DNA from: Escherichia coli
Lineage (GTDB): Bacteria; Pseudomonadota; Gammaproteobacteria; Enterobacterales; Enterobacteriaceae
Direction: 5' to 3' (one strand)
DNA length: 64,000 bases
NCBI RefSeq assembly: GCF_003019035.1
Contig: NZ_CP027447.1
In this document: positions 20,398 through 58,149 of the stretch, piece by piece
Numbering within the stretch: the stretch's first letter is position 1
Layout: the number at the start of each line of letters is the position of its first letter
Position numbers and translations under genes: made by a program
The notes under the pieces: model-generated
What the model was told of the DNA's origin: nothing
The model's input: the letters and a program-made list of their open reading frames with translations, nothing else
Databases searched by the model: none

Positions 20398-20415
20398 CCC
20401 AGGAGATAACGGCAG

Positions 20416-20859: not shown

Positions 20860-21983
20860 TTCGCATAGCGCCCTTGATTACCGCTGACGTTGATAACGCC
20901 ACATTGCCTGGCGGCAAAGCCAGCGATGCTGCACAAGATTTTCTCGCGTTGTTGAGCGAAGCATTAACAGGCGAGGCAACAACCGACAAAGCGGCCCCTC
21001 AGTTGCTGGTGGCAACAGATAAGCCCACGGCAAAAGGCGAGCCGCTGGTCAGCGATATTGTTTCCGACGCGCAACAAGCAGATTTACTGATCCCTGTGGA
21101 TGAAACACCGCCTGTCATCAACGACGAACAATCCACATTAACACCGTTAACCACCGCTCAGACGATAACGTTGGCTGCGGCGGCTGACAACAATACGGCA
21201 AAAGACGAAAAAGCGGATGATCTGAATGAAGACGTCACCGCAAGCCTGAGTGCCCTTTTTGCGATGTTGCCGGGTTTTGACAATACGCCCAAAGTGACTG
21301 ATGCACCGTCAACCGTGTTACCGACAGAGAAACCAACGCTTTTCACAAAACTGACTTCTGCGCAACTCACTACAGCACAGCCTGATGACGGCCCCGGCAC
21401 GCCAGCTCAGCCATTAACAGCGCTGGTAGCAGAAGCCCAGAGTAAAGCGGAAGTCATCAGCACACCTTCACCGGTGACCGCTGCCGCCAGCCCGCTAATC
21501 ACTCCACACCAGACACAGCCACTGCCCACCGTCGCCGCGCCTGTCTTGAGTGCACCGCTGGGTTCTCACGAATGGCAACAATCATTAAGCCAGCATATTT
21601 CGCTGTTCACCCGCCAGGGGCAACAAAGTGCAGAGTTGCGTCTGCACCCACAGGATTTAGGTGAAGTGCAAATTTCCCTCAAAGTGGATGATAACCAGGC
21701 GCAAATCCAGATGGTTTCACCGCATCAGCACGTACGCGCCGCCCTGGAAGCAGCGCTGCCGGTACTGCGTACGCAGTTGGCCGAAAGTGGCATTCAGTTA
21801 GGGCAAAGCAACATCAGTGGCGAAAGCTTTAGTGGTCAGCAGCAGGCCGCTTCCCAACAACAGCAAAGCCAACGCACAGCAAACCATGAACCTCTGGCGG
21901 GGGAAGACGACGATACGCTTCCGGTTCCCGTCTCTTTACAAGGGCGTGTAACAGGCAACAGCGGCGTTGATATTTTCGCCTAA
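20856..21983 (+). CDS. fliK: flagellar hook-length control protein
   Basis: 375 aa, Pro/Ala/Thr-rich. Confidence 0.95.
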
Positions 21984-22087
21984 CGTCAGAGGTAGCACCG
22001 TAATCCGCGTCTTTTCCCCGCTTTGTTGCGCTCAAGACGCAGGATAATTAGCCGATAAGCAGTAGCGACACAGGAAGACCGCAACAC

Positions 22088-22552
22088 ATGACTGATTACG
22101 CGATAAGCAAGAAAAGCAAGCGATCGCTTTGGATCCCGATTCTGGTATTCATTACCCTCGCGGCCTGTGCCAGCGCAGGTTACAGCTACTGGCATTCGCA
22201 TCAGGTTGCCGCTGAAGACAAAGCGCAGCAACGCGTCGTGCCCTCCCCGGTCTTCTATGCGCTGGATACCTTTACAGTCAATCTGGGCGATGCGGATCGC
22301 GTGCTTTATATCGGCATAACCCTGCGACTCAAAGATGAAGCTACCCGCTCGCGGCTGAGTGAGTATTTGCCGGAAGTCCGTAGCCGTTTGCTGTTACTGT
22401 TTTCGCGTCAGGATGCTGCCGTACTGGCGACAGAAGAAGGCAAGAAAAACCTGATTGCCGAGATTAAAACCACACTTTCCACCCCGCTTGTTGCCGGGCA
22501 ACCGAAACAGGATGTCACCGACGTGCTGTATACCGCTTTTATTCTGCGATAA
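22088..22552 (+). CDS. fliL: flagellar basal-body-associated protein FliL
   Basis: 154 aa with one N-terminal TM helix. Confidence 0.95.
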
Positions 22553-22556
22553 CGAC

Positions 22557-23561
22557 ATGGGCGATAGTATTCTTTCTCAAGCTGAAATTGATGCGCTGTT
22601 GAATGGTGACAGCGAAGTCAAAGACGAACCGACAGCCAGTGTTAGCGGCGAAAGTGACATTCGTCCGTACGATCCGAATACCCAACGACGGGTTGTGCGC
22701 GAACGTTTGCAGGCGCTGGAAATCATTAATGAGCGCTTTGCTCGCCATTTTCGTATGGGGCTGTTCAACCTGCTGCGCCGTAGCCCGGATATTACCGTCG
22801 GGGCCATCCGCATTCAGCCGTACCATGAATTTGCCCGCAACCTGCCGGTGCCGACCAACCTGAACCTTATCCATCTGAAACCGCTGCGCGGCACAGGGCT
22901 GGTGGTGTTCTCACCGAGTCTGGTGTTTATCGCCGTGGATAACCTGTTTGGCGGCGATGGACGCTTCCCGACCAAAGTGGAAGGTCGCGAGTTTACCCAT
23001 ACAGAACAGCGCGTCATCAACCGCATGTTAAAGCTGGCGCTTGAAGGCTATAGCGATGCCTGGAAGGCGATTAATCCGCTGGAAGTTGAGTACGTGCGTT
23101 CGGAAATGCAGGTGAAATTTACCAATATCACCACCTCGCCGAACGACATTGTGGTTAACACGCCGTTCCATGTGGAGATTGGCAACCTGACCGGCGAATT
23201 TAATATCTGCCTGCCATTCAGCATGATCGAGCCGCTACGGGAATTGTTGGTTAACCCGCCGCTGGAAAACTCGCGTAATGAAGATCAGAACTGGCGCGAT
23301 AACCTGGTGCGCCAGGTGCAGCATTCACAGCTCGAGCTGGTCGCCAACTTTGCCGATATATCGCTACGCCTGTCGCAGATTTTAAAACTGAAACCCGGTG
23401 ACGTCCTGCCGATAGAAAAACCCGATCGCATCATCGCCCATGTTGACGGCGTTCCGGTACTGACCAGTCAGTACGGCACCCTCAACGGTCAGTATGCGTT
23501 ACGGATAGAACATTTGATTAACCCGATTTTAAATTCTCTGAACGAGGAACAGCCCAAATGA
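22557..23561 (+). CDS. fliM: flagellar motor switch protein FliM
   Basis: ORF 22455..23561 trimmed to ATG at 22557 (MGDSILSQAEIDALL), 334 aa. Confidence 0.95.
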   Translation: MGDSILSQAEIDALLNGDSEVKDEPTASVSGESDIRPYDPNTQRRVVRERLQALEIINERFARHFRMGLFNLLRRSPDITVGAIRIQPYHEFARNLPVPTNLNLIHLKPLRGTGLVVFSPSLVFIAVDNLFGGDGRFPTKVEGREFTHTEQRVINRMLKLALEGYSDAWKAINPLEVEYVRSEMQVKFTNITTSPNDIVVNTPFHVEIGNLTGEFNICLPFSMIEPLRELLVNPPLENSRNEDQNWRDNLVRQVQHSQLELVANFADISLRLSQILKLKPGDVLPIEKPDRIIAHVDGVPVLTSQYGTLNGQYALRIEHLINPILNSLNEEQPK

Positions 23562-39186: not shown

Positions 39187-40545
39187 TTAATTTCTTTGCG
39201 GTAACGTAATCCGGAACACATTATGCTTATTGAGATAGTGATACGTAGCACTTCCCCCATGCAATTCGGCAATCGCTTTGACTAAAGAAAGACCAAGTCC
39301 CTGACCTACGGAATGACGCGAATTATCTCCCCGCCAAAATCTACGGAAGAGTTTTTCAGGCTCATGAATTTTCGTTCCAGGACTGGCGATATCAATATTA
39401 AGAGAACCGTTGGTATCAAGAAAACTGGTTATCTGAATACGCGATTTTTCTGGCGAATATCGAATAGCGTTAACAATAAGATTCGATAACATTCGTTGCA
39501 GTAAAATTTTATCCGCAAAGATTTGCTGATTGCACTCGACCTTAAAGCAAATCTCTTTCTCGTCTGAAAGGTATTCAAGATAGTCCAACAAATTTTCGAC
39601 TTCCTTATTGAGAGAAAGCGAGTCCAGTTTCACCAAAACATTATTTTTATCTGCCCTGGCAAGAAACAGTATGTTCTCTGTTAACCGCGAAATATTTTCC
39701 AGCTCTTCAATGTTTCCGGCAATTGTTTTTTGATATTCAGCGATACTTCTGGTTTGACTGAGCGTAACCTGATTCTGACCCAGTAATGCATTAATTGGCG
39801 TTCTAAGTTCATGAGCGAGATCGTCAGCAAACTGACTTAGACGCTCAAAATCTTTGACTAAAGCTTGGTGCATTTTATTCAACGCCTGCCCAAGAGGTTT
39901 TAGTTCTCTCGGTAATGCGCTAACCTCAACAGGCTCCCGGTTATCGTTATAATTCAGCGCTTCCGTTACACCACTCAACTTTTTGATCTCTCGTAACCCC
40001 GTTCTGATTAACAACGGACTTAATACTGAGCACAGTATAATGGCAACAATGCAAATTATAATGCTATTAATTTTATACTGTTCAAGCATGTTATGTCTGG
40101 CTGAAGCCAATTTAGCCACAGTAACCGTTAATGATGGCGAAACTTCATCAATATTAATTCGTAAAGCATCTATCTCTGTGTCATTAATAATGCTTCTGTA
40201 AATGCCAGCTGCGCTGATTGTCTCACTAGCAGGTATGTTATTTAACATGCCATCACTGACATTTGTCCGGTTAACAATTTTATTGATGCCATCACCATGA
40301 ATGAGCAAGATATCCTGACTAACATCCATCATCCGGTTAAAGTACACAGGTAACGTATCTGGATTTACCCCATCAATTAACAACTGCTTGATCTGCGCTG
40401 TCCGGTTAATGAGTGTTGTATCATCGCGCCATTTCAACTCACTTGCCAGGCCATTATAGAGAGTCCAGACAATTCCAGCGCCAGCAACAGACAGCAGCAA
40501 TATAAAAAGCAAGGTTAAACGGACGGTTATAGATAATCTTTTCAT
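39187..40545 (-). CDS. hprS: two-component sensor histidine kinase
   Basis: 452 aa; His-kinase H-box HELRTP. Confidence 0.93.
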   Translation of the reverse strand: MKRLSITVRLTLLFILLLSVAGAGIVWTLYNGLASELKWRDDTTLINRTAQIKQLLIDGVNPDTLPVYFNRMMDVSQDILLIHGDGINKIVNRTNVSDGMLNNIPASETISAAGIYRSIINDTEIDALRINIDEVSPSLTVTVAKLASARHNMLEQYKINSIIICIVAIILCSVLSPLLIRTGLREIKKLSGVTEALNYNDNREPVEVSALPRELKPLGQALNKMHQALVKDFERLSQFADDLAHELRTPINALLGQNQVTLSQTRSIAEYQKTIAGNIEELENISRLTENILFLARADKNNVLVKLDSLSLNKEVENLLDYLEYLSDEKEICFKVECNQQIFADKILLQRMLSNLIVNAIRYSPEKSRIQITSFLDTNGSLNIDIASPGTKIHEPEKLFRRFWRGDNSRHSVGQGLGLSLVKAIAELHGGSATYHYLNKHNVFRITLPQRN

Positions 40546-41216
40546 TATTTTTTTACCGCTACGAATGAATAGCCCATCCCCCGGATTGTGGCGATTAGCT
40601 TTTCAGGAAAAGGATCATCAACTTTTGCGCGGAGCCTGCGAATGGCGACGTCCACCGTATTGGTATCACTATCAAAGTTGATTCCCCAAATTTCACTCGC
40701 AATAACCGTTCTGGGGATAATCTCGCCAGCTCTGGAGGCCAGTAGCCAAAGTAACTGAAACTCCTTGCGCGTCAGTGTAATACTGATATTGTCCCTGCTC
40801 ACACTTTGACTAACAGAGTCCATTCTTAAGCCGCTGATTTCTAATGATGAATTCAGAGCGTGATGTTGCCTTAATTGTGCCCGAACCCTTGCCAGCAACT
40901 CAGAAAATGAAAAAGGTTTTACCAGATAATCATTTGCTCCACTGTCCAGCCCTCTGACTCTGTCATCGACAGAATCCCTTGCAGTAAGGCAAATAACAGG
41001 GGTTTGCTTTGCTGTTCTTAACGTTTGTAAGATCTGCCAGCCATCCATACCCGGAAGCATAATATCCAGAATGATCAATGCATAATCATCCTTCAGCGCA
41101 AGATAAAGCCCATCTCTGCCATCTGAAACGGCATCAATGACATAACCCGCTTCGGAAAGCCCCTGCGTTACCCATTCCTGGGTCCTTTGATTATCTTCAA
41201 TAAGTAGAATCTTCAT
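40545..41216 (-). CDS. hprR: OmpR-family response regulator
   Basis: ORF trimmed to MKILLIEDN, 223 aa. Confidence 0.93.
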   Translation of the reverse strand: MKILLIEDNQRTQEWVTQGLSEAGYVIDAVSDGRDGLYLALKDDYALIILDIMLPGMDGWQILQTLRTAKQTPVICLTARDSVDDRVRGLDSGANDYLVKPFSFSELLARVRAQLRQHHALNSSLEISGLRMDSVSQSVSRDNISITLTRKEFQLLWLLASRAGEIIPRTVIASEIWGINFDSDTNTVDVAIRRLRAKVDDPFPEKLIATIRGMGYSFVAVKK

Positions 41217-41348
41217 GAAAATAATATGCCATAAATCATATGTTATAGAAACAGCCTGGTTCATTACAAAATTGTAATGCTGCTGTAAGGTTACCCTGGA
41301 CGTTTTTTCGCTATCCTCAAAACTCATTCACATGACAAGGATATAAAC

Positions 41349-41762
41349 ATGTTAAAGCGTTATTTAGTACTCTCCGTAGTAACGGCTGCATTTTCATTAC
41401 CTTCTTTGGTCTATGCTGCACAACAAAACATTCTTAGCGTGCACATTTTGAACCAGCAAACAGGAAAACCCGCTGCCGACGTGACAGTCACTCTTGAAAA
41501 GAAAGCGGATAACGGCTGGTTACAACTTAATACCGCCAAAACAGATAAGGATGGACGAATTAAGGCACTGTGGCCCGAGCAAACTGCGACTACGGGCGAT
41601 TACCGTGTCGTATTTAAAACCGGGGACTATTTCAAGAAACAAAATCTTGAAAGTTTCTTCCCTGAGATCCCCGTTGAATTTCATATTAATAAAGTGAACG
41701 AGCATTATCATGTGCCTTTGTTACTCAGCCAATATGGGTATTCAACCTATCGTGGCAGTTAA
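41349..41762 (+). CDS. hiuH: 5-hydroxyisourate hydrolase (transthyretin-like)
   Basis: 137 aa with signal peptide and YRGS C terminus. Confidence 0.93.
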
Positions 41763-41864
41763 TGCGTAAATATGTAAAAGCTGATCTCTGCTACTGTTAG
41801 GGAGGTGACTCCCTGACAGATTAACAGTAAACGGCTCTTGTTGGCTAACGACAAAAAAGTGTGA

Positions 41865-42875
<1,011 letters not shown>

Positions 42876-43511
42876 ATGCGTCTGACAGCAAAACAGGTGA
42901 CATGGCTGAAAGTTTGCCTGCATCTTGCCGGATTGTTGCCGTTTCTCTGGCTGGTCTGGGCGATTAATCACGGTGGACTGGGTGCCGATCCGGTGAAAGA
43001 TATTCAGCATTTTACCGGTCGCACTGCACTGAAATTTTTGCTGGCGACCTTGTTAATCACACCTCTGGCACGCTACGCAAAACAGCCGTTATTGATACGC
43101 ACTCGCCGCCTGTTAGGATTATGGTGCTTTGCCTGGGCGACACTGCATTTAACCAGTTACGCATTGCTGGAGCTGGGCGTGAATAATCTGGCGTTATTAG
43201 GTAAGGAGTTAATTACCCGGCCTTATTTAACGTTAGGTATTATCAGCTGGGTAATTTTGCTTGCGTTAGCGTTCACTTCAACCCAGGCGATGCAGCGAAA
43301 ACTCGGCAAACACTGGCAACAGTTGCATAACTTCGTCTATCTTGTCGCGATCCTGGCCCCAATACATTATCTGTGGTCAGTGAAGATTATTTCACCGCAG
43401 CCACTCATCTACGCTGGGCTGGCTGTACTGCTTTTAGCCTTACGGTATAAGAAGTTGCTTTCCCTTTTCAACCGGTTACGCAAGCAGGTTCACAACAAAT
43501 TATCTCTATAA
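42876..43511 (+). CDS. msrQ: methionine sulfoxide reductase heme-binding membrane subunit
   Basis: 211 aa. Confidence 0.93.
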
Positions 43512-43544
43512 CTTGATATTGCCGACAAAGTACGCGTTATCCCT

Positions 43545-43577
43545 GCCGGATGCGGCGCGAGCGCCTTATCCGGCCCA
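43545..43577. repeat. REP element
   Basis: gccggatgcggcgcgagcgccttatccggcc. Confidence 0.7.
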
Positions 43578-43708
43578 CACAGATCGCATCAGGTTATGTT
43601 TCGTTTGTCATCAACCTCAAATCATCGACATAATTTATGTCATTTCAATAAGATAGGAAAATATACCTGAGGTAACTTTGCACTCGTTTCCTAAGAGTTG
43701 TTGCATTT

Positions 43709-43732
43709 TGTTATATGTTACAATATAACATT
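43709..43732 (+). promoter_or_regulatory. Zur box in the zinT promoter
   Basis: palindrome tgttatatgttacaatataacatt versus Zur consensus GAAATGTTATAWTATAACATTTC. Confidence 0.6.
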
Positions 43733-43767
43733 ACACATCATGTACATTAACTCTGGAGGAAACTGTT

Positions 43768-44418
43768 TTGGCGATTCGTCTTCATAAACTGGCTGTTGCT
43801 TTAGGTGTCTTTATTGTTAGCGCTCCTGCCTTTTCGCATGGTCATCACTCACACGGCAAACCCTTAACAGAGGTCGAACAAAAAGCTGCTAATGGTGTTT
43901 TTGATGATGCCAATGTACAAAACCGAACACTAAGTGACTGGGATGGAGTCTGGCAATCCGTTTATCCTTTACTGCAAAGTGGCAAACTTGACCCCGTCTT
44001 TCAGAAGAAAGCGGATGCAGATAAAACCAAAACATTTGCTGAAATTAAAGATTATTATCACAAAGGTTATGCGACAGATATCGAGATGATTGGCATTGAG
44101 GACGGCATTGTTGAATTTCATAGAAATAATGAAACAACATCCTGTAAATATGATTACGATGGATACAAAATACTCACCTATAAATCAGGTAAGAAAGGCG
44201 TTCGTTACTTATTCGAATGTAAAGATCCTAAAAGCAAAGCCCCTAAATATATTCAATTTAGCGATCATATAATTGCACCACGAAAATCATCTCATTTTCA
44301 CATTTTTATGGGTAATGATTCACAGCAATCTTTATTAAATGAAATGGAAAACTGGCCAACGTATTATCCCTATCAGTTGAGTAGCGAAGAAGTGGTCGAG
44401 GAAATGATGTCTCATTGA
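43768..44418 (+). CDS. zinT: periplasmic zinc/cadmium-binding protein
   Basis: 216 aa; TTG start with SD ggagga; His-rich N terminus HGHHSHGK. Confidence 0.93.
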
Positions 44419-44506
44419 TTTTTTTGCGCTGACTTCAATTATTTAACAGAACAGTGCCTGGTAGTAACGACAATAATTTACCAAGACAAATAAATAAGAC
44501 AAACTC

Positions 44507-44538
44507 AGACACGCTCATGCTTGAGACGTGTCTTTTTT
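44507..44538 (+). terminator. intrinsic terminator downstream of zinT
   Basis: stem agacacg / cgtgtct followed by a T-run. Confidence 0.6.
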
Positions 44539-45087
44539 ATTATGTCTGTAGAATAAAACTGAGAAAACGGCGAACAATAAATACACAACTCACCAATACA
44601 GACTGGCTGCGCCAATGTCTCCAGGAGCAAGTCATCTGTCATGGTAAAGCTAACCAGAAATATAGGTTAATTTTGGTATTTAAACCTTTTTTACTTGTTA
44701 GTATGATACAAAGGCTTTCAAAAAAGCTGGGAAATTCAACAACTCTTGGAAATTATGGACTTTGTCCCGCGGCTTTAATCTGACGGCCGCGTTCCTTTTT
44801 TTGCTCAATTATTGACCCCTTCTCTACGCAACTTCAGTTCCCACCACCAACTTTGCGGCAGCTTTGTAGGATCAATGTCTAAAAGAATAATGGTGACCGA
44901 TAAGAAAACGACTGAATAATTGCAGATTTTCGCTCGAAACCTTCCTGTCAGATCCATAGCGAATCAAGTGCTGAATGTCACAGTATCGAACAGAAAACAG
45001 TGACGATCTAACCCTTCAAGAATATTCTACGATTGTTCTGTTTAGGAAAAGCAAGGCGGGAAGTCGGGAGATAAGTCATTGATAAAG

Positions 45088-45149
45088 TGGCGGAGAGAGG
45101 GGGATTTGAACCCCCGGTAGAGTTGCCCCTACTCCGGTTTTCGAGACCG
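45088..45149 (-). other. 3-prime 62 nt of tRNA-Ser(CGA) (serU-type): prophage att junction
   Basis: minus strand reads CGGTCTCGAAAACCGGAGTAGGGGCAACTCTACCGGGGGTTCAAATCCCCCTCTCTCCGCCA (anticodon loop to CCA end); tRNA 5-prime half absent, match stops at 45150. Confidence 0.8.
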
Positions 45150-45494
45150 ATGATACAGAGTCGAAAAATCAAAGAGTTAAAAATTTTTCTTGGAATAAAT
45201 GTCTTAAAATCGTACACGAAAAATCAATGAATTACATAAATTAAAGAAGAATATTCCAAGCCTTCTTAAGTCCACCACCTGTTTTCAGGTGTCATTCAGA
45301 CGTGATTTGCCCCATATTGGGAAAGCACGCTTTTTTCTCAGCTTATTCCGTTTTGCCTGTGTGTTGAATAATTCCACTGCAGTTATATAAAATCGGTAAC
45401 GGCTGGAAATCATTCAATACTCGCACTATCGGAAGTTCACCAGCCAACCGCAGCACGTTCTTGCATACGACGTGCTGCGGCATAATCCCAATGA

Positions 45495-46079
45495 TTACTC
45501 CCTGACAGGGTTCGTAGGCCACTCAATATCAGGTGCAGTTGATGTATCAACACGGTTCAGCAACACCCGATACTTCTTCCAGGCTTCCAGCAACGAGTTT
45601 TCTTCCTCCGTTGCAATTTCCAGATCTACAGCATCCTGAAGCGGCGCAATATGCTCACTGGCTACCTGCATCAGGCTTTTTTTTGTTTCTTCCGCCTCCC
45701 GGATCCGGAACAGTTTTTCTGCTTCCGTATCCTTCACCCAGGCTGTGCCGTTCCACTTCTGATATTCCCCTCCCGGCGATAACCAGGTAACATTTTCCGG
45801 TAACGGACCGAGTTCAGAAATAAATAACGCGTCGCCGGAAGCCACGTCATAGACGGTTTTACCCCGATGGTCTTCAACGAGATGCCACGATGCCTCATCA
45901 CTGTTGAAAACAGCCACAAAGCCAGCCGGAATATCTGGCGGTGCAATATCGGTACTGTTTGCAGGCAGACCGGTATGAGGCGGAATGTATGCATCACCTT
46001 CACCAATAAATTCACTGGTTCCGGCCAGCAGATTATAAATTTTTATGGTCCGTGGTTGTTCACTCATTCTGAATGCCAT
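45495..46079 (-). CDS. tfa: tail fiber assembly protein (lambda Tfa-like)
   Basis: 194 aa, matches lambda Tfa as I recall it. Confidence 0.9.
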
Positions 46080-48403
46080 TATGCAAGCCTCACAATATAG
46101 TTAAATGCGATGTTTTTGACGGTGTTTTCCGCGTTACCAGCAGCGTTAACGGTGATGGTGTGTCCGTGTGAACCAATACTGAAAGAATGGGCATGAGCAC
46201 CGATAACAACCGGATGCTGGTGCGCACCAATACCAACTGTATGCGCATGTGCACCGGCACTCACAGCTGTACCGGACAATGAGTGACTGTGGTTGCCCTG
46301 ACTGTCCGTTTTCGATAAATAAGCAATACCCTGTGTGTTGGTTCCTTTAACTGTGGATAAACTTCCTGTAATGGTTGCTGTTCCATACTGACTCCAGCCA
46401 GAACTGTTCATCCTTAAACCACTTGTGTGGGCATGAGCACCCGCGGCCCCTGTTGAACCGCTCAGACTGTGAGCATGAGCCCCCGTGTTATTCGTCGATT
46501 TGGTGCCGTAATCGAAACTGCCTGTTGTTTTCGTCCCGTAATCAAACGACGATGTGGTTTTCGTCCCCAAATCCGTACCGGATGCACTGGCACTGTGGGT
46601 GTGCGACTTAATTCCATCCTGTTCCTGAGACAATACAGCACGACCGCTGGCGGGTTTCCCCTTGATTGTCCAGCCTCGCATATCAGGAAGCACACCCGAT
46701 GGATACGCGACAGCAAGTTTTGGGTAGGCTGATTTGTCAAACGCCTGCCCCTGCATCAGGACGTAGCCAGACGGAACGATATCTGATGGCCACGGGATCG
46801 GCGCACCTGCCGGAAAGGCCGAATTCTCTCCGGCTCCAAGGTATTCAAGAACATCTGCAACAGAATTTTTTGCCAGAATATCCCTGCCAACCTGAGTCAG
46901 TTCAGTCAGGCTGGCGGCATCATTTTCCGCAAAATACGGTAATTTATTTTTCGCCGTGGAAAGCCCTGCCAGCGCCGTCAGTGTCGCATTCTTCGGTTGT
47001 TTACCCGCAAGCGCGTTAGTCATGGTGGTAGCAAAATCTGGATCATTCCCGAGCGCTGCGGCCAGTTCATTCAGCGTATTCAGTGCGTCAGGTGACGCGT
47101 CGATAACATCTGCAATCGCGGCCAGTACAAAAGCGGTGTTCGCAATCTGGGTATTGTTTGTTCCCCTGAGCGCGGTTGGTGCTGTTGGCGTTCCGGTCAG
47201 TGCCGGACTATCCAGTGGGGCTTTTCTGTTCGTTTCATCCATTACCACCTTAACCGCCTTTGGCGTTGCAGCAAGCGTTTCAGACGTGCTGTTGGTTGCA
47301 CTGCTGAGCTGCACTATCCCCTTTCTCGTTGTGTCCGCATCCTCAAGCGCGACAGCTGAAGCTATATCTTCTGCACGTTTTGCCGAGTTTTCTGCACGTA
47401 TTGCCGCCGCTTCTGCCGCACTTTTGCTCTGCGATGCTGATACCGCACTTCCCGCAGCCTCTGTCGCCTTCGTGGATGCCGTTGACGCACTCCCCGCCGC
47501 CGCTGTTTTTGCGTCTGCCGCGGCAGAGGCGCTCCGTTCCGCTGCTGTTTCAGATGACCTGGCATTCGTCTCGGACGTTTTTGCCGCCCTGGCAGAATTT
47601 TCTGCCGCCGTTGCCGAGGAAGCTGCACGACCGGCACTTGATGATGCGTTCGTTTCTGATGATTTTGCTGCCTCTTTTGAGGCCACCGCATCTCGTGCTG
47701 AAGTGGCGGCCTCTGACGCTTTAGTGGTCGCGGTGGAGGCAGACGTGGCGGCTGATTGTTGTGACGCTGCAGCATTCGTTTCTGACGTTTTCGCCGCACC
47801 GGCACTGGTGGCCGCCGCGCTTTTTGAGGACTCTGCAGCGGCAGCACTTTTTTCCGCTTCAGTGGCCTTTGTTGATGCCGTTCCTGCGCTGGAAGACGCT
47901 GACTGAGCCGACGAAGCGGCCTGTCCGGCTGACGTGCTGGCTGCGCGTGCTGAGCCTGCAGCATCAGTCGCATGGGTTGCCGCCTCACGGGCTGATGTGC
48001 TGGCATCGCCGGCTGACTTCTTCGCGGCTGCCGTGTTCTGTGCCACCACGGACGCGTTACGCGCCACCTCTTCCACCATCAGTTCAAAACGGCGCAGTGC
48101 CTCAGGACGGGCATCATCCTCCGTCATGGCACCGAGAAAATCATTCAGCGTACCGGGTCGGGAATCTTCATACACGGTGATGGTCCCGGCATGTGACGGC
48201 GGGAATCCTTCCACCAACAGAATAACGCTGTACTGACCGTACTCAACGTCCATGCTGTAACGCCCGGCTTCATCCGGATTTTCTGAGGCCAGCGTGTTCA
48301 CCACCACCGTGGTACTGTTACGTTTTGCTTTCAGCTGGATTGTGCAGTTCTGTACCGGTTTTCCTGTGCCGTCTTTCAGTACACCTGAAATCTTTACTGC
48401 CAT
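46079..48403 (-). CDS. stf: side tail fiber protein (lambda Stf-like, full length)
   Basis: N terminus [20 protein letters not shown]; Ala/Ser-rich repeats; C-terminal GAHAH repeats; ATG at 48403 (ORF-track start 48409 is GTG). Confidence 0.9.
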
Positions 48404-48414
48404 ATTCACCCCAC

Positions 48415-48440
48415 AAAAAAGCCCGCCTGAACCGGCGGGC
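48415..48440 (-). terminator. intrinsic terminator after lom
   Basis: gcccgcc/ggcgggc hairpin followed by a T-run on the minus strand. Confidence 0.6.
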
Positions 48441-48467
48441 TGTCATAACACTGTGTTACCTGGCTAA

Positions 48468-49067
48468 TCAGAATTTATAACCGACACCCACGATGAAACC
48501 GTCAGTGCGCCAGTCGCCACTGCCGGAACCTTCATAAGCGACATCAACGGCCACGGATTCGGTCGGGTTAAACTGCACGCCAGCCCCCCACGCCAGAGAC
48601 GTGTTGCTGTGGCGACCGTCATCACTTCCGATCAGCACATCGTGCGTTTTCCCCGTATTGTCGGTCACCTGCAGATAATCCCCGGAGAAAGTCGACACAC
48701 GGCTGTAAGCCACACCCGCCATCGCATACGCGCTGAACCATTCATTCACGCGCACAGACGGCCCCGCCATCACGCTGAACCAGCGGTTACGCACGGAATC
48801 TTCATGCCAGCGGGTATCGCTGTAATGCGTTTTTTGCTCATCTTCAGCGTTGGCATAACTGAATGACGTAATCAGCCCCAGCGTGTCCGTAAACTCATAA
48901 CGGTATTTCACGTTAATCCCGTTCAGATTATCGCTGCCGGGAGCGTTCGTACGGGCATGAAGATACCCTGCGCTCAGTGTGGCCTGCTGCTCAGACGCCC
49001 ATGCAGGCGCACCGGATACGGCCAGACAGATGGCTGCGGACAAAATGGCTGCACAAACTTTACGCAT
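48468..49067 (-). CDS. lom: Lom-family outer membrane beta-barrel protein (Ail/OmpX-like)
   Basis: 199 aa with signal peptide and C-terminal GVGYKF. Confidence 0.9.
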
Positions 49068-49091
49068 AATTACCTCTCGCTTTTCTGCAAT

Positions 49092-49115
49092 AAAAAAGGC
49101 GCCATTTCTGGCGCC
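49092..49115 (-). terminator. intrinsic terminator after J
   Basis: ggcgcc atttct ggcgcc hairpin followed by a T-run on the minus strand. Confidence 0.55.
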
Positions 49116-49134
49116 CGTATATGGGTTATAAAAT

Positions 49135-52100
49135 TCAGCTGATACTGATGCCTGCGGTGGCTTTCTTCATCACCACAACCAGCAAATCGCTGATACTTGC
49201 TGTGGGATACCAGTCATTTACCAGCCATGCTGACACCGAAAACTCCAGCGTCATGTGGCCGTGACCAGCTGGCATATCAATAACACCACTGTAAATCAGC
49301 GTATTATCCAGCGCGGTACGGTTATAAATTTCAGCACCATTTTTCTTCACTATCAGGCGGCATGACGAATAAATATCGTTATTCTCCCGCTCATGTTTAG
49401 CGCCGCAGAATGCCACCGCCGGAATAACAATTTGCCTGTCAAAAGGCTGATCGTCATAAATCCTGACGGTAATGGTCCCTGATGGCCACCGCTCCGGTGC
49501 CCGGGAGTCCCGCGGGAAAGCCTTACCCACTGTTTTGACAATATCGCCTTCAATCTGGTTGGCTGACAGTTTCCCTTTAATCTGACAGTTCTCATTTATC
49601 GTAACGTTGTTGAGCGTCCCGGAGTTCGCATTCACACTGCCACTGATATCCGCATTTTTAGCGGTCAGCTTTCCGTCTGATGTCAGGGAAAATACCGGAG
49701 GACTGCCTCCGCTGGTAATGGTGGGTGCCGTCAGGCGTTTCAGGAACACGTCGTTCATGAATATCTGGTTGCCCTGCGCCACAAACATCGGCGTTTCATT
49801 CCCGTTTGCCGGGTCAATAAACGCGATACGGTTAGCGGCAACCAGAAACTGGCTCAGTTTGCCTTCCTCCGTGTCCTCCATGCTGAGGCCAATACCCGCG
49901 ACATAATGTTTGCCGTCTTTGGTCTGCTCAATTTTGACAGCCCACATGGCATTCCACTTATCGTTGGCGTCCTTCCACTCTTTCGAAAACTCCTCCAGTC
50001 TGCTGGCGTTATCCTCCGTCAGCTCGACTTTTTCCAGCAGCTCCTTGCCGAGATGGGATTCGGTTATCTTGCCTTTGAAAAAATCCAGGTAACCTTCCGC
50101 ATCATCGCTCGCCCGACCGACGGCCTCCACGAATGCCGATTTGCCAACGGTGTTCACACTGCGGATATAAAAGTAATAATCATGGCCCGGTTTGATATTG
50201 ATACTGGCGGCTATCCAGTACAGCCCCGTGCCAAGATAGCGGGCTGTGGTTTCAACCTGCCTGATATCAGTAATCCGCGTTTCCGAGAACCAGAACTCAA
50301 ACTGTACCGTCGGATCGTAAACCGCAAGATGCGGCGTGGCGGTTATCTGAAAATAGCCCGGCGTCAGCTCAATCCGCGACGGCGCTGCCGGTGCGGCAAT
50401 CCGGAACGATACCGACGCCGGATCGCCCTGCTGTCCCCACGCATTTACCGCCCGGACTGTCAGCCTGTAGTTCCCTGGCGCCAGTTGCGTGAAGCGGTAT
50501 GTGGTTTCCGTCGTCCGGGCCGTGCTGACCAGCCGCTCACTGCCGTCATCCGCTGCCACGGTCAGGCGAAGCAGGAAGCTCACGCCCTTCACCACTTTCG
50601 GCGTGTCCCAGCGGGCCAGCACCTGATATTCTCCGCTGTCTGCGGTGACTTCGGCAGTCAGGTGCTGCACCGCTGGCGGCGTGACACCATTCACCGTGCC
50701 GCTCTGGTCGCCGTCAAAGTGCGCCCCGTTATCCACGATGGCCTCTTTTTCCGGCACATGCTGCACGGCGGTGATGGCATACGTGCCGTCATCGTTCTCA
50801 CGGATACTCACGCAGCGGAACAGTCGCTGGCGCAGCGTCGGCAGCTTCAGCCCCCATACGCTGTATTCAGCAACACCGTCAGGAACACGGCTCACTTTTA
50901 CCTTCACGCCGTCGGTGACGGACTGAACCTCCACGCTGACCGGATTGCCACTTCCGTCAACCAGGCTTATCAGCGCGGTACCGGAGGATGGCAGCGTGAT
51001 TTCACGGTCGAGCGTCAGCGTCCGGGTCTGGCTGTTCACCGCCAGCACGCGACCACCGGTACTGATACCGGCATAGTCATCATCGCAGACTTCAATGACG
51101 TCACCCGGTACATGGCGAAGCCCTTCTGCACCCACGCTGAAGTCCACCGTCTGCGTCTCCAGCAGTTCCGTTTTAATCAGCCACAGCCCGGCGCGGTGCG
51201 CCTGCCCCCGGCTGGTACAGCCAAAGGCATCCATCTTCGTGACGTTACGACCGTAACGGGCAATAGCCTGCGTATCTTCAACCAGCTCCGTCGCCGTCTC
51301 CCAGCCGTTGTTCGGGTCAATCCAGTTCACCTCAACGGCATTATGGCGGTCCTTCAGGGCGCTGAAGCTGTAGCGGAACGGCGCGCCATCATCCGGCATC
51401 ACCACATTACTGCGGTTATAGGTCCACACCTTATCTGATGGTCGGTCCTGCACGAACGTCAGCGTCTGCCCGTTCCATACCGGCATACAGCGCATCGCCG
51501 AGCAGAAATCACTGAGCACATCCCACGCCTTGCGCTGCGTGGTCAGGTACGCATTACAGGTGATGCGCGGCTCCGTGCCGCCAAAGCCGTCCGGCACTGA
51601 CTGGTCGCAGTACTGGCCGATGACATACAGCGCCCATTTATCCACATCCGCCGCACCAAGACGTTTCCCCATGCCGTAGCGCGGATGGGTCAGCATATCC
51701 CACAGACACCAGGCCATGTTGTTGCTGTATGCCGGTTTAAACGTTCCGTCCCAGATACCGCTGTATTGCCGCGTCTGCGGGTTATAGTTCGACGGCACCT
51801 GCAGAATGCGCCCGCGAAGATGATAATTACGACTCACCTGCTGGCTGCCGAACTGCTCCGAGTCCACCTGTACACCGACCAGTGCCGTGTTCGGGTAGCC
51901 CTGTTTCACATCGATGATTTCGGTGTATGACGACCAGAGCGTTTTGTTCTGCAGCTGGTCTGTAGTGCTGTCCGGCGTCATCCTGCGCATCCGGATACTG
52001 AACGGGCGCGGCGGCAGGTTACCCACCACCACCGAGGCCAGATACTGCGAGGTGGTTTTACCCTTAATGGTGATGTCTTTTTCTGTCACCCAGGCACCGT

Positions 52101-52530
52101 TACGCTGTATCTGAACCAGCAGGCGGACTTCCGACGGATTCCGGTCACCCTTTGAGGTGGTTTCCACCAGAGCCTGCACACCGAAGGTAAAGCGCAGTCG
52201 GTCGATGTTTGCCGACGTGATGGTCCGGGTGATCGGCGTGTCATATTTCACTTCCGTACCCAGCACCGTCTCGGAGCCGGAGGATTCAAACCCCTCCGGC
52301 GGTGTCTGCTCCTGCTCACCTGCCCGGAACACCACCGTGACACCGGAGATGTTGGTATTCCCCTCAGTGTCCAGCACCGGCGTACTGTTCAGCAGCACGC
52401 TTTTTAATCCATCCACCGGACCTTCAATCGGTCCTTCACTGATGGCATCAATCACACTCAGCAACTGCGTGGACTTCAGGTTGTCCTTCGCTTCGCGCGG
52501 GGTATGCCCCTTACTGCTGCCTTTACCCAT
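49135..52530 (-). CDS. J: tail tip / host specificity protein J
   Basis: 1131 aa; N terminus [24 protein letters not shown] matches lambda J; C-terminal ~150 aa diverge. Confidence 0.93.
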
Positions 52531-52590
52531 TCGTCATGCTCCATAAACGACAAAACCGCCCTGAGGCGGTTTCACATAAAACGTTTTTCA

Positions 52591-53238
52591 TCATCGACCA
52601 ATCACCACAACCTGACCACCGTCCCCTTCGTCTGCCGTGCTGATTTCCTGAGAAACCACACGAGACCCCACACGCATTTCACCGTACAGAACAGGCAGAA
52701 CATTGCCCTGGGCAACCATGTTATCCAGTGATGAAAAATAGGTGTTCTGCTTACCGTTATCCGTGCTGGTCGCTGTGGGCGTCCGGGCTTTCGGTGCCAG
52801 CATCTGGGCCACACCACCCAGGATCATACTGGCCCCTGCCGCATACATGCCCGATACAGCCGCGGCACCCAGCCAGCCCACAGGGTTCCACCATGCCACA
52901 GCAATCAGCGCCGCCCCCAGCACCACCTGAAACACACCGCCACTTTTAGCTCCCGCCAGACGCGGCACGATGTGGATCACGGCACCATTTGCCAGCGGCT
53001 CATTAAGACGGGCAGATAATTCGGTTTCACCTGCATCACGCCCGGCAATGCGCACCTGATACCAGCCGTCATTCAGTTTCTGACGAAACGCCGGGAGCTG
53101 TGTGGACAACGCCAGGATGGCTTCAGCCCCCGTTTTTACACGAAGGTCGATGCGGCGGCCAAATCGTTGTAAATCCCCGTAAAGGCAGATGCGTGCCATG
53201 CCCGGTGACGCCAGAGGGAGTGTGTGCGTCGCTGCCAT
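52591..53238 (-). CDS. I: tail assembly protein I
   Basis: 215 aa, lambda I-like. Confidence 0.9.
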   Translation of the reverse strand: MAATHTLPLASPGMARICLYGDLQRFGRRIDLRVKTGAEAILALSTQLPAFRQKLNDGWYQVRIAGRDAGETELSARLNEPLANGAVIHIVPRLAGAKSGGVFQVVLGAALIAVAWWNPVGWLGAAAVSGMYAAGASMILGGVAQMLAPKARTPTATSTDNGKQNTYFSSLDNMVAQGNVLPVLYGEMRVGSRVVSQEISTADEGDGGQVVVIGR

Positions 53239-53879
53239 TTGTCGGTATACCTCTCTCGTTTGCTCAGTTGTTCAGGAATATGGTGCAACAGCTCACCGTC
53301 GCCGCAGTAAATGGCGGCATGATTCGGCACCGATGAACCAAAACAGCACAACAGCACATCGCCCGGTTGTGCTGATGACAACGGCACCTGATACAGCCCC
53401 GTGGCCTCCAGATTATCCAGATAGAGATTCTGACCGTGACGCCACCAGTCATCCCCGCGATGAAAATCCGGCATCTCAATCCCCGCCAGATGATAAGCAT
53501 CCCGGAACAGCGTGTAACAGTCCGTCACCCCGTGATCAAAGCGCCTTCCGGTCAGATGTGGCACGCAGCGGAATTTATGGAGAGCCCCCCGACAGACCAG
53601 CCACCACGGCAAATCACTCTGTACCTGCAGCTGACGGTCGGCTTCACTCAGCCAGGGCAGACCACCGGGATGGCTGTGGACCAGCGCCACCACCTCGCCC
53701 TGTATTTGTGCCCGCAGCCAGTCTTCCGGTACCATCCGGAAACACGCCTCCGGAGTACCGGAGATATTCACGCAGGGAAGATACCTTTCCCCCTCCGGCG
53801 TTCTCACCACGAAGCCGCACGACTCCGCTGGCGCACATCGCCGGGCGTGCGCCAGAATCGCTGATTCAGTCTCTGTCAT
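53136..53879 (-). CDS. K: tail tip assembly protein K (NlpC/P60 + JAB/MPN)
   Basis: ORF trimmed to MTETESAIL; lambda K-like; overlaps start of I. Confidence 0.88.
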   Translation of the reverse strand: MTETESAILAHARRCAPAESCGFVVRTPEGERYLPCVNISGTPEACFRMVPEDWLRAQIQGEVVALVHSHPGGLPWLSEADRQLQVQSDLPWWLVCRGALHKFRCVPHLTGRRFDHGVTDCYTLFRDAYHLAGIEMPDFHRGDDWWRHGQNLYLDNLEATGLYQVPLSSAQPGDVLLCCFGSSVPNHAAIYCGDGELLHHIPEQLSKRERYTDKWQRRTHSLWRHRAWHASAFTGIYNDLAAASTFV

Positions 53880-53883
53880 GGAT

Positions 53884-54582
53884 TTACTGCGAAAGTTTGT
53901 TAATGGAAAGGAAGCCGCCAAAGTTGCCGACGTTATTGCGAAACTTACAGCCACTCAGGCATTTGCTGCATTTATCCTTCGTGATATCGGACGTCGGCTG
54001 GTCATATTCATCCGCGACCGCCGGACCGTTATAACCGCACTCATCGCCTCGATAGGTCCAGGTGCAGGTGTTGGCCAGCATGATACGGCCCGGAAAAACA
54101 GCGCCATCCGTTTCCGTCGGTGTGGACAGTACAAAAGAGGCACTGACCGCACTCAGTTCGCTGCACTGCTCGATGCGCCAGCGGCTGATCACCTCCTGCT
54201 CCGGATCGGCGTCACTGTTTCCGTTGACGAAGTTCACCGCATCCAGAAAACGGGCGTAAACCTTACGCCGGACCACCGTTCCGCCGACCAGACTCTGCAG
54301 ATCTTCCGCCATCCCGGTGACCATGCCGTGCAGATTAGAGACTTTCAGCGTTGGCCTTGCACTGGCTCCTTTGCCGTTCATCTCAAATCCACTTCCCTGA
54401 ATGGGATAGGCCTGATACTGCCGCCCCTGCCAGGTGACTGGTTCACCTTTTTCGTTCTGCTCATTACAGAAGAAATAACGATCTCCGCCGACCTCTGTCA
54501 GATCAATTTCCCAGAGCACGACCAGCGCGGATTGCTCCGCTTTTGTACACTCATTCAGTGTTTCCTGCTGTATATCCTGCAT
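53884..54582 (-). CDS. L: minor tail protein L
   Basis: 232 aa, lambda L-like. Confidence 0.92.
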   Translation of the reverse strand: MQDIQQETLNECTKAEQSALVVLWEIDLTEVGGDRYFFCNEQNEKGEPVTWQGRQYQAYPIQGSGFEMNGKGASARPTLKVSNLHGMVTGMAEDLQSLVGGTVVRRKVYARFLDAVNFVNGNSDADPEQEVISRWRIEQCSELSAVSASFVLSTPTETDGAVFPGRIMLANTCTWTYRGDECGYNGPAVADEYDQPTSDITKDKCSKCLSGCKFRNNVGNFGGFLSINKLSQ

Positions 54583-54915: not shown

Positions 54916-57900
54916 TCAGGCACTGTATAATCCTCCGTCCCGACGTGATGACTGCATAATTGACACAACCCTGCTGTCGATCAGATCCACCAGCCCCCTG
55001 GCTGACTGCGTATCTATCTCGCCATTGCTCCCTTTATTCTGAATACTGATGTGATACACGGGAGAATAGACAAATCCGCCGCCACCATTCACATTGCCAA
55101 TGGCTCTGACCCCAAGAGAGCCGTCCGCTGCCCGCGTCAGTGGCATGATAGCTTCAGGCCCGGCCTCGCCCATCAGTCCGGCACCTTTCGCAAAAGCAAA
55201 ATACGTCGGCGTATCCACAATAGTGTTACTGTAAGCACTCAGATTTGCCGATGTGTAAACACCACCTTTTGCGTTTGCTACTGCCCCCGAAATCCATCCG
55301 CCTACCGTACCAAGCCACCCTCCGGCGCCGGAGAGTGATTTCAGTCCGTTAACAATGGCCGCATTCATCAGAATTTTTGAAACTTCCTGGAGAACTGAAC
55401 TCCCCCAGTTCCTCCAGTCAACAACATTCCCGGCCAGTGCATCGGAAATATTTGATACCAGCCCGTCCATGGTGGAAACGACAGCATCTGCCGCCTGCGA
55501 AGCATAATCAGTGGCACTGTCTGCCCAGTTCGTCAGCCCCTCCTGGAGTCCGGCATTCCAGTTACTGCGTAAAGCATCAGCCTTTGCATAATAATCCTGC
55601 TGATCGCTGAGACGCTCTTCCAGATATTTTTTATTCAGTTCTTTCTCCTGTTTCCACAGGGCTTCTTCAATTTCTCCGGCCTGATACTGTCTCAGCAGCT
55701 CGTTATTTTTCTGCTCAAACGTCTGCCGGATACTCCACATTTCCTGGAGTCGTTCACGCATCCGTGAGCCTTCACCATATCCCAGCAACTGCGCGTCGTC
55801 AGATGCCCGGGCACTGGCATTACTGTCCGCCAGACTGCTCTCATACGCAGCAAGCTGCTCACGAATCTTTTTCTGGTCGATGAGTGCTGCATTCTGCAAA
55901 AGCGTTTTTTTCTGCGCTTCTGACAGGGTTGATAATTCGCCCTGACTGACCTGATATTTCATCTTAGCCAGTTCAGTATTCTGCCCTGCCAGTGCTATCT
56001 GCTCTTTCTGCTGTTTAATCAGCCGTTTATAAATATCTTCTGTTTTTTCCGCCTCGGTCTTTTTATGCGCTTTGGGTTTATTTGCCTGATTATTTCGCCA
56101 TGCATCCAGTGAGTTATTTATATAATTCAGTCTTGCTGTCTGATATGCCTCTCCCACAAAGCCGAGATCATCCGCAGCATAACCCAGGCGGGCACGCTCA
56201 CGGGCTTCCCCCTTCAGGCGGGACAGAGCCAGTTCGCGCTCGCTGTTATTCAGTGCGGTCTGCTGTTTATCATCCAGGGTTGCCTGTGGCAGCCGTAACG
56301 GTACATTCACCAGCCCCTGACGCTGCTGAAGTAACTCATTACCAAGCCCGAGAAGGCGATTAAACTCGGTATGCTGCCCATTCATGATCAACAGGGACTG
56401 ATACGCTTTGTTTTGTTCCGCTGCCTGTTGACGGATCAACGCAACCCGCCGCTCCTCCAGCCCGGCAAGCACATCCTGAATGGATTGCGCTTTGCCCTGC
56501 ATTTGTGTGAGGCGAGACTGTTCAACTGCCAGTTGATTTGTTGCTTCGGCAAGCCCTTCTGTGACAGTTTTTACCGACGTCATGTGGTTAATCATAAAAC
56601 CGTTATCGGTTGTCCAGCCCGGGTTTGCCAGCACGTACTGATAGCCAGCAATTTTTTCCTGTAAGGATTTAATCTTACTTTTCTGCTCGTCAATTAACCT
56701 GTTCTGCTCCTTCAGTGCCTGCCGCGTCTTTTCCTCATTATCTGACGCTTCAGGAAGCGACATTGCCGACGTTTTCTGGCGAATTTCGTCGATTGTTGCG
56801 GCATACTGGCGTGCAGATTCTCTGGCCTGCTCCTGATTCTGATACATCGTGTACCAGGCCGCGGCCCCCAGCATGACAAGCCCCGGCACACCCCCAACCA
56901 GTCCCAGTGCTCCACTTAACAGACGACTCCCCGCTGACGTGACAGTATTCAGCGTTGTCTGTGCTGCTGTTCTGGCCGCAATATTACGGGTAAGTGATGC
57001 CTGGGCAGCAGCCAGTTTCGCTTCTGCGGCTGCCTGCCTTTCGGTACCGCGAGCAGCAACAACCGCCTGTTGCGCACGATAAACCGCCGCACGCGCCCTG
57101 GCTGTTGCTATCTGTGTCCCCCGAAGTTGCGCTTCCGCAAGAGCCACTTCGTTTCTGGCTGCAGTAATTAATCCGGCAGTTGCAGATCCAGCAGAAGACG
57201 CCATATTGCCAAAATATCGGGCTACCCCGACGGCAACCAGAGCACCGGCAGCGGTTGCCACAGTGTCAATATTGCCTGCAATACCATTCAGCACACCAGA
57301 GAGCGTCTTTGTCACTCCGCTTGCCTCGTTCGCACCACCAACCCAGGCCATAAAGGCGTTTTCAACTTTGGTTGCAGAGGATGAAACAGTATCAGGCATT
57401 GCTGCATATTCATCACGTAACGCCCCAAGCTGACTAATCAGTGCAGGAACAACCTTATCGGCGGTCAGTTTTCCGTTATCCGCCATGGCCTTCAGATCCT
57501 TACGGGCAACACCCATTCCCGCAGCCAGCGCACGAATAACACGATCGCCGTTCTCATTCACAGAGTTAAATTCTTCACCGCGCAGCACTCCCTGCGCCAG
57601 TGCCTGACTGAACTGCGTGATCACCGAACTGGCTTCTGCTGTACTGGCACCGGATAATTTCAGCCCCGTGGAGATCGCCTCGGTGACTTTCAGTACCTCC
57701 TCAGAACTGTAGCCATACTCCCGCATGGAAGCTGCAGAGCGGGCAAAAAGGCTGGCGTTATCCGAAAACGCCGTCCCCGTTCTCTGGCTGATTGCCATTA
57801 ATTCACGTTGTGATGCCTGAAAATCATCACTGGACTGCGTGGCCTGCTTCAGACGGGCATTGACTGAATTCCACTCATCGGCGAGAGAAATAAGATGACC

Positions 57901-58149
57901 GGTAGCAAAAGCCCCGGCAAATGCCTCCGCCATATTCAGTGCCGAAGACTTAGCTGTATTTATCTGATCCGTCACTTCTACCAGTGCACGCCGCATTTCA
58001 CGGGATGCTGCAGCGGACTGTCGGCCTCCGTTCTGCATGGTGCGGTAGTAATCCTGCCCCATGCGCGAAGCCCGGGCGATCTCTGACTGGAATGACCGGG
58101 AGTTTGCCGAGATTTTAATAATCAGTTCACGTAATGTCGCCACACTCAT
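54916..58149 (-). CDS. H: tail tape measure protein
   Basis: 1077 aa, Ala/Gln-rich coiled-coil, position between GT and M. Confidence 0.92.
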   Translation of the reverse strand: MSVATLRELIIKISANSRSFQSEIARASRMGQDYYRTMQNGGRQSAAASREMRRALVEVTDQINTAKSSALNMAEAFAGAFATGHLISLADEWNSVNARLKQATQSSDDFQASQRELMAISQRTGTAFSDNASLFARSAASMREYGYSSEEVLKVTEAISTGLKLSGASTAEASSVITQFSQALAQGVLRGEEFNSVNENGDRVIRALAAGMGVARKDLKAMADNGKLTADKVVPALISQLGALRDEYAAMPDTVSSSATKVENAFMAWVGGANEASGVTKTLSGVLNGIAGNIDTVATAAGALVAVGVARYFGNMASSAGSATAGLITAARNEVALAEAQLRGTQIATARARAAVYRAQQAVVAARGTERQAAAEAKLAAAQASLTRNIAARTAAQTTLNTVTSAGSRLLSGALGLVGGVPGLVMLGAAAWYTMYQNQEQARESARQYAATIDEIRQKTSAMSLPEASDNEEKTRQALKEQNRLIDEQKSKIKSLQEKIAGYQYVLANPGWTTDNGFMINHMTSVKTVTEGLAEATNQLAVEQSRLTQMQGKAQSIQDVLAGLEERRVALIRQQAAEQNKAYQSLLIMNGQHTEFNRLLGLGNELLQQRQGLVNVPLRLPQATLDDKQQTALNNSERELALSRLKGEARERARLGYAADDLGFVGEAYQTARLNYINNSLDAWRNNQANKPKAHKKTEAEKTEDIYKRLIKQQKEQIALAGQNTELAKMKYQVSQGELSTLSEAQKKTLLQNAALIDQKKIREQLAAYESSLADSNASARASDDAQLLGYGEGSRMRERLQEMWSIRQTFEQKNNELLRQYQAGEIEEALWKQEKELNKKYLEERLSDQQDYYAKADALRSNWNAGLQEGLTNWADSATDYASQAADAVVSTMDGLVSNISDALAGNVVDWRNWGSSVLQEVSKILMNAAIVNGLKSLSGAGGWLGTVGGWISGAVANAKGGVYTSANLSAYSNTIVDTPTYFAFAKGAGLMGEAGPEAIMPLTRAADGSLGVRAIGNVNGGGGFVYSPVYHISIQNKGSNGEIDTQSARGLVDLIDSRVVSIMQSSRRDGGLYSA

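Follow-up and report, generated by a model that had tools for sequence, protein, structure and literature searches.

In phage lambda, the tip attachment protein gpJ contacts its receptor with four loops, L1-L4 (PMC11101478). The gain of function leading from LamB to OmpF depends on residues 1012 and 1107; natural variation and indels accumulate at positions 1048-1051 and 1077, at the former also in experiments (PMC6646904). Brodel et al. (Nature 2024; PMC11338833) exchanged everything downstream of residue 964 of lambda J for C termini of J proteins from natural prophages and screened the resulting chimeras on a lamB deletion strain. For the two that were characterised, A8 and 1A2, delivery of DNA into strains lacking both lamB and ompC was seen only with ompC supplied in trans; 1A2 worked efficiently with OmpC from EDL933 but not with the K-12 protein, whereas A8 accepted both variants (PMC11338833). 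The 1A2 tip is also that of the anti-STEC vector EB003 (bioRxiv 10.1101/2025.02.28.640725). Phage 21, on the other hand, has LamB as native receptor, to which a single J mutation adds OmpC and further ones OmpF (PMC11336670), and J of Gifsy-1, with a C terminus reported to be 18% identical to that of lambda, binds Salmonella OmpC. Exchange of the J tip as a module is known, is widespread and has been characterised functionally. Besides J, the side tail fibre Stf of Ur-lambda is reported to bind OmpC and, though dispensable, to speed adsorption 10-30 fold (PMC12617516), and Stf was swapped out of the vectors of Brodel et al. to prevent competition for OmpC (PMC11338833).

The window analysed here, a stretch of 64,000 nucleotides from Escherichia coli contig NZ_CP027447.1, includes about 20 kb of a prophage, namely its tail end, which adjoins the chromosome beside zinT (43768..44418). 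Within this portion, a J gene with two clearly different parts is encoded:

49135..52530, minus strand: J (tip attachment/host specificity protein), 3396-nt ORF, 1131 aa plus stop
49585..52530, minus strand: lambda-like body of J, residues 1-982, 97.8% amino acid identity to lambda J
49138..49584, minus strand: divergent receptor-binding region of J, residues 983-1131, 42.7% identity to lambda J

Over its full length, the deduced protein is 91% identical to lambda J (J02459, 1132 aa). Residues 1-982 differ from the lambda protein by 22 substitutions only (960/982 identical), whereas identity in residues 983-1131 falls to 64/150 in a global alignment and to 43.3% over the last 150 residues in a multiple alignment. 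The division into about 980 lambda-like and about 150 divergent residues, as proposed in the initial annotation, is borne out with a change from 97.8 to 42.7% about residue 982; the break is placed at window position ~49574-49585, in agreement with the interval of 49138-49580 proposed for the divergent region, and the protein strings quoted in that annotation are found in the translation of ORF 49135..52530. The further claim that the C terminus differs from that of lambda holds with respect to the low identity, but the two sequences align from end to end with a single one-residue gap, caused by an extra residue of lambda in the last loop. The alignment to J02459 rules out that this region is lambda's own version, and the C terminus appears as a diverged homologue of the lambda domain, not as an unrelated sequence.

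Six Pfam domains are found in J, each above its curated cutoff and all in the order known from lambda (from N to C terminus FNIII-A_GpJ, Phage-tail_3, Ig_J, Ig_J_second, Phage_Tail_Tip and Ig_GpJ_C). The tail gene order I - J - lom - stf - tfa is likewise that of lambda, as deduced from the ORF map and from collinearity with lambda 15435-22608. By domain architecture, operon position and the tip fold described below, the protein is a member of the lambda gpJ tip attachment protein family.

At the nucleotide level, the transition in J is abrupt. The megablast match to lambda and its laboratory derivatives ends at nt 2946 of the gene. A scan in 60-nt windows gives 88-100% identity to lambda as far as nt ~2920 and 44-71% from nt ~2980 onwards. 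In blastn comparisons, window positions 49574..52600 are matched without gaps by lambda 15435-18461 at 95.8% identity, and homology is back from 48595 to 45446 (lambda 19458-22608, 95.7% identity). Between these blocks, the following elements are located:

48596..49573, minus strand: non-lambda cassette, from the 3' end of J across the intergenic region into lom (5' two-thirds), delimited by blastn against lambda
49097..49116, minus strand: terminator-like hairpin and T-run between J and lom, from a consensus scan only
48468..49067, minus strand: lom (Ail/Lom outer-membrane protein), 199 aa, non-lambda allele (Pfam Ail_Lom, 415 bits)

The cassette holds the last ~146 J codons, and blastn against lambda finds one 58-nt match (86%) inside it and nothing else. 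It is collinear with phage 2G7b, at 92.7% identity over window 48054..52600. The encoded Lom shares only 43% identity with that of lambda, consistent with a cassette spanning the 5' two-thirds of lom. The candidate J-lom terminator has an 8-bp stem with six GC pairs followed by TTTTTT, which is a match to the consensus and not functional evidence; in phage 21, a terminator is annotated at the corresponding place.

Judged from these alignments, J is a mosaic gene and the break represents a recombination boundary, being too abrupt and too large for chance. A lambda-type body consisting of hub, FNIII/Ig domains and fibre shaft is joined at about residue 983 to an Ig-like tip of another allelic class, and this junction forms one edge of a recombination cassette of about 1 kb also bearing most of lom. 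The junction itself is finely mosaic, as the polymorphisms of the window J at residues 943-985 agree with h434 and A8 and not with lambda or 2G7b.

The divergent stretch is still the receptor-binding domain of J, as follows from Pfam, from a PDB search and from a structural model. The match of residues 1001-1131 (window 49138..49530) to Ig_GpJ_C scores 128 bits (cutoff 26.2). When searching the PDB with phmmer, gpJ of A8 (9wca/9wcb) was retrieved with an E-value of 2e-83 and lambda gpJ (8xcj/8xck, 8iyk) with values from ~4e-61 to ~1e-60. An AlphaFold2 model calculated from a 35-sequence alignment reaches pLDDT values of 82-97 over most of the tip, and the four best Foldseek matches to it are 9wca, 9wcb, 8xck and 8xcj (E-values of 7e-22 to 7e-20), with TM-scores of ~0.6 that suffer from the poor modelling of the monomeric shaft. 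The entries 9wca and 9wcb represent A8 gpJ in the closed state and in the open state with EDL933 OmpC, respectively, and 8xck and 8xcj the corresponding states of lambda gpJ, the open one with LamB. In the model, residues 1049-1050 form the tip of a hairpin and 1105-1115 a loop. From the strand order and published descriptions, the loops 1004-1017, 1049-1050, 1074-1076 and 1105-1115 are predicted to lie together at one end of the domain, where they would correspond to L1-L4 of lambda.

For assigning the tip to one of the known classes, it was compared with those of characterised phages and chimeras. Identity to 2G7b amounts to 92.6% in the global alignment of residues 983-1131 and to 92.7% over the last 150 residues in the multiple alignment, in both cases free of gaps. 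The sequence of gpJ 1A2 had to be taken from a noisy, machine-read supplement by a frameshift-tolerant dynamic-programming alignment, so that the exact identity is uncertain; 125 of the 142 readable positions in the last 150 residues are identical (88%), without indels. When OCR damage is discounted, about 12 real differences are left, corresponding to an estimated identity of about 92%. These differences, written from the window to 1A2, are Q983R, I984V, K985L, I997L, I1024V, C1042S, R1048K, N1050H, N1051T, K1062R, D1106N and S1129T, three of them being situated in predicted loops. From 2G7b, the window tip differs at Q983, I984, K985, I997, I1024, C1042, N1050, N1051, K1062, D1106 and S1129, and the noisy 1A2 alignment can be read as showing only two clear differences between 2G7b and 1A2. 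Plain tblastn against the machine-read 1A2 and A8 sequences gave identities of 40-62%, which are misleading because of frameshifted pieces. For A8, a clean sequence from the PDB was used, with an identity to the window tip of 66.4% over the last 150 residues in the multiple alignment; the frameshift-tolerant alignment with the machine-read A8 sequence gave 63%.

By high identity and equal loop lengths, the tip of the window J is assigned to the 1A2 class. Phage 21, with 63.6% identity to the window tip over residues 983-1131 (global) and 67.8% over the last 150 residues (multiple alignment), shares with A8 a first loop shortened by 4 residues and a second loop lengthened by 5. Both indels are absent from the window tip, which at 64-68% identity falls outside the class of A8 and phage 21, albeit A8 matches it exactly at residues 983-1001. 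A lambda-type LamB tip is not found either, considering the identity of 42.7% and a proline at the position of lambda S1012, with D1106 being the equivalent of lambda D1107. Nor is the tip of the 434 type, as identity to h434 is only 41.9% over residues 983-1131 (global) and 45.6% over the last 150 residues (multiple alignment), with several indels, although the J body of h434 is 98.7% identical to that of the window and matches its polymorphisms at residues 943-982 exactly. As h434 carries the classical OmpC-binding lambdoid tip, the two would represent separate solutions if both bind OmpC. The EHEC siphophage phi330, which needs OmpC (PMC12502783), was also considered as a guide via its closest sequenced relative WGPS6. 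This comparison is uninformative on the 1A2 class, since the WGPS6 tip is 434-like and only 50% identical to that of the window. The combination of a lambda-type body with a tip of the same class is present in the 1A2 chimera as well as in its natural counterparts 2G7b, PhiR55_1 and many Stx1a/Stx2a long-tailed phages, and the natural J of the window is in effect the configuration engineered in the chimera.

With the tip falling into the 1A2 class, OmpC is the best-supported receptor, and an OmpC-binding tip acquired by recombination is the best reading. We assign a probability of about 0.7 to OmpC itself; a higher value is not warranted because receptor choice is labile among J tips. In the manner known from lambda, a trimeric porin would receive the loops of the three tips in which the central fibre ends, and this binding would trigger opening of the tail. 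For a tip of the 1A2 class, the porin would most likely be OmpC, and likely particular OmpC alleles. By analogy with the chimera, recognition by the window tip is probably allele-specific, too; the ompC gene of the host lies outside the window. The initial annotation had predicted an outer-membrane receptor other than LamB from the divergence to lambda. This prediction is likely correct in view of the ~92% identity to the OmpC-dependent 1A2, but the divergence alone is insufficient as an argument, because the tip of phage 21 is only ~49% identical to that of lambda and nevertheless uses LamB. More precisely, in the multiple alignment the phage 21 tip is 48.6% identical to lambda and 81.5% to the OmpC-using A8, on the assumption that the phage studied in PMC11336670 has the J of record OL657228. 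It is conceivable that also the window tip binds LamB by a solution different from that of lambda, all the more as phage 21 does so with a tip 67.8% identical to that of the window and as single mutations shift it between LamB and OmpC (PMC11336670). We regard this as improbable, since 1A2, at ~92% by far the closest relative with a functional test, came out of a selection on a lamB deletion strain and is OmpC-dependent, and since the window tip lacks the indel pattern common to phage 21 and A8. A literature search on the closest isolated phages (PhiR55_1, PhiR47_1 and 2G7b) yielded one paper on the PhiR panel reporting dependence on ManYZ and no outer-membrane receptor, and a large receptor-screen preprint contains no lambdoid tips of the window's class.

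Some of the differences from 1A2 are located where specificity is expected to be set, in particular at these codons:

49378..49383, minus strand: N1050-N1051 at the predicted beta-hairpin tip, H-T in 1A2 and 2G7b (alignment, AlphaFold2)
49213..49215, minus strand: D1106 in the last predicted loop, aligned with lambda D1107 (position mapping)

The N1050-N1051 site aligns with lambda 1048-1051 and belongs to the most polymorphic positions of the class. Among 28 cluster representatives, mostly partial proteins, variation is concentrated at positions 983-985, 1042, 1045-1053, 1090-1092 and 1103-1106; at 1106, the representatives have G (13), N (8) or D (7). Each residue of the window J at the variable sites recurs in other representatives, and the window allele thus appears ordinary in spite of the placement of its differences. 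Binding of OmpC as proposed above might have been modified at these positions, with N1050, N1051, D1106 and C1042 having retuned the tip to OmpC alleles other than those of 1A2 or to another porin such as OmpF. It is at these sites that polymorphism within the class is concentrated, they align with the natural and experimental specificity hot spots 1048-1051 and 1107 of lambda, and 1A2 and A8 already accept different OmpC alleles. Such retuning is nevertheless improbable, as the residues recur in several representatives, identical copies of the allele occur in many genomes with nothing being unique to this locus, and no data tie these residues to a change of receptor in the 1A2 class.

Downstream of lom, the side tail fibre genes are encoded:

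46079..48403, minus strand: stf, intact side tail fibre gene, single ORF, 774 aa from ATG
45495..46079, minus strand: tfa, tail fibre assembly protein, 194 aa (Pfam Caudo_TAP; 96% identity to lambda orf-194)

An alternative GTG start of the stf ORF is present at 48409 (776 aa). In lambda PaPa, stf is split into orf-401 and orf-314 by a single-base difference, the sequence at ~20835 being CCC; at window position ~47217, CCCC is found instead and the extra C restores the frame. The C-terminal 314 aa of the window Stf are nearly those of lambda orf-314 (312/314 identical, 99%), the N-terminal 395 aa share 93% with orf-401, with substitutions mainly in the alanine-rich region, and Tfa is identical to lambda orf-194 at 186 of 194 positions. 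Like the window, Ur-lambda has an uninterrupted Stf with a lambda-type distal part and the cognate Tfa. From the 99% identity to the Ur-lambda type, the window Stf is expected to bind OmpC. Intact Stf/Tfa had been put forward as a second adhesin, and the undisturbed frame and the identities of 99 and 96% agree with this; the fibres probably address the same porin as the tip, however, and would not add a second receptor. They would hasten reversible adsorption, probably also via OmpC. In contrast to Ur-lambda, which pairs Stf with a LamB-binding J, the window would pair it with a J that probably binds OmpC. It seems unlikely that the two adhesins read different OmpC alleles or surfaces, or that N1050, N1051 and D1106 have shifted the set of porins or alleles of the tip relative to 1A2. 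If the adhesins do recognise different OmpC alleles or surfaces, entry would depend on a single porin and still cover a broad range of alleles.

OmpC as the present receptor presupposes a tip in use. If the prophage were defective, the receptor specificity of its tip would be a historical trace only, and two observations are compatible with this, as the window holds nothing but the tail end of the prophage and tail-fibre remnants beside zinT are common, with 2816 genomes covering at least 80% of a zinT-tfa junction query. Decay of this kind is unlikely here, considering that J, lom, stf and tfa as well as I, K, L and the tape-measure gene upstream of J are all open, with the stf frame intact, and that the window lacks the IS110 insertion present between L and K in its closest relative RM8082. 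This cattle isolate is the closest complete genome for the tip-lom-stf-tfa block, and its J gene bears the PGAP name "host specificity protein J". With respect to annotation, a lambda-like J in this context does not mean LamB. For the host range of this prophage and of related long-tailed Stx phages, OmpC would be the likely receptor, in an allele-specific manner. Hence, assays in K-12, including the mutant panel proposed in the initial annotation, may give false negatives because 1A2 uses K-12 OmpC inefficiently. As the precedent of phage 21 illustrates, receptor calls from similarity below ~80-90% identity are unreliable among J tips.

Tips of this type are widely distributed. In a phage collection, 56 records are 90-95% identical to the window tip, including many Stx1a/Stx2a long-tailed phages, the PPompW prophages, 2G7b, PhiR55_1 and PhiR47_1, whereas 89 records of the phage 21/A8 type are at 60-80% and 97 of the lambda and 434 types below 60%. 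Of 5426 complete E. coli genomes, 3572 are hit by the last 450 nt of J in megablast; identity is 99% or higher for 103 records, many of them at 100%. The equivalent 450 nt of lambda match in only 98 of the 5426 genomes, and the five of these listed are laboratory strains of the K-12, B and DE3 types. Going by these matches, the tip of the window represents the commonest type in E. coli prophages, and that of lambda is the unusual one. Mildly novel are only the loop differences between alleles and the fact that two probable OmpC binders are paired. The latter, a tip of this class next to an OmpC-binding side fibre, is a small curiosity that bears on delivery vectors engineered from lambda. Natural association of an OmpC-class tip with a Ur-lambda-type Stf is uncommon; the tip-lom-stf-tfa block is covered to at least 80% in 61 of the 5426 genomes and to at least 93% in three of them, namely RM8082 (99.8%), C311 and JNEC-KY180.

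Three features are located in the J 3' end and in lom, the gene that follows it:
49585-49700: codons for J residues ~943-985, directly upstream of the main break
49405-49407: codon C1042 of J, a cysteine in the tip allele of the window
48468-49067, minus strand: lom, overlapping the exchanged cassette (48596-49573)

Judged from its polymorphisms, the J junction is a fine mosaic, as S943, V946, S951, N974, N979 and Q983-I-K985 of the window protein agree with h434 (the J protein of phage 434) and A8 gpJ, not with lambda or with phage 2G7b. Within the tip, position 1042 is a cysteine in the window, whereas serine is found in most class members (19 representatives with S, five with C and four with R). 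The recombination cassette that carries the J tip (48596-49573) has also replaced the 5' two-thirds of lom; the encoded Lom is of the 2G7b/434 type and shows only 43% identity to lambda Lom. J tip and lom appear to move as one unit. Each of the two genes is directly followed by a terminator-like GC hairpin with a T-run:
49097-49116, minus strand: hairpin directly 3' of J
48420-48441, minus strand: hairpin directly 3' of lom

Both are consensus matches only, the two observed comparing with 0.8 expected in shuffled sequences.

Tail mosaicism looks to extend past J, as indicated by the length of the ORF in the tape-measure position:
54916-58149, minus strand: ORF of 1077 aa

This length is close to that of the annotated tape measure of the Stx phage WGPS6 (1080 aa), while lambda H is far shorter (853 aa). 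In lambda relatives, the tape-measure clade has been tied to ManYZ dependence (recent preprint). In contrast to the cattle isolate RM8082, where an IS110-family element is inserted between tail genes L and K, the window does not bear this insertion (53039-54120), and its tail operon is thus uninterrupted there.

At the tail-proximal end, the prophage meets the following chromosomal segment:
40000-44418: flank hprR-msrPQ-zinT

ARAGORN did not find any tRNA or tmRNA gene across window positions 1-64000; accordingly, no complete tRNA gene marks this junction. When querying 5426 complete E. coli genomes with positions 40000-46200, comprising the flank and the prophage end up to tfa, the top full-length match was no more than about 97-98% identical; the source strain is without a close representative in this collection. 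The distance from zinT to the prophage end is about 220 bp in the window (44419-44640), compared with about 1 kb including yodB (cytochrome b) in RM8082, and yodB appears to be missing from the window at this position. Such a yodB-less zinT-tfa junction seems to be common among E. coli genomes; the junction query was covered to at least 80% in 2816 genomes.
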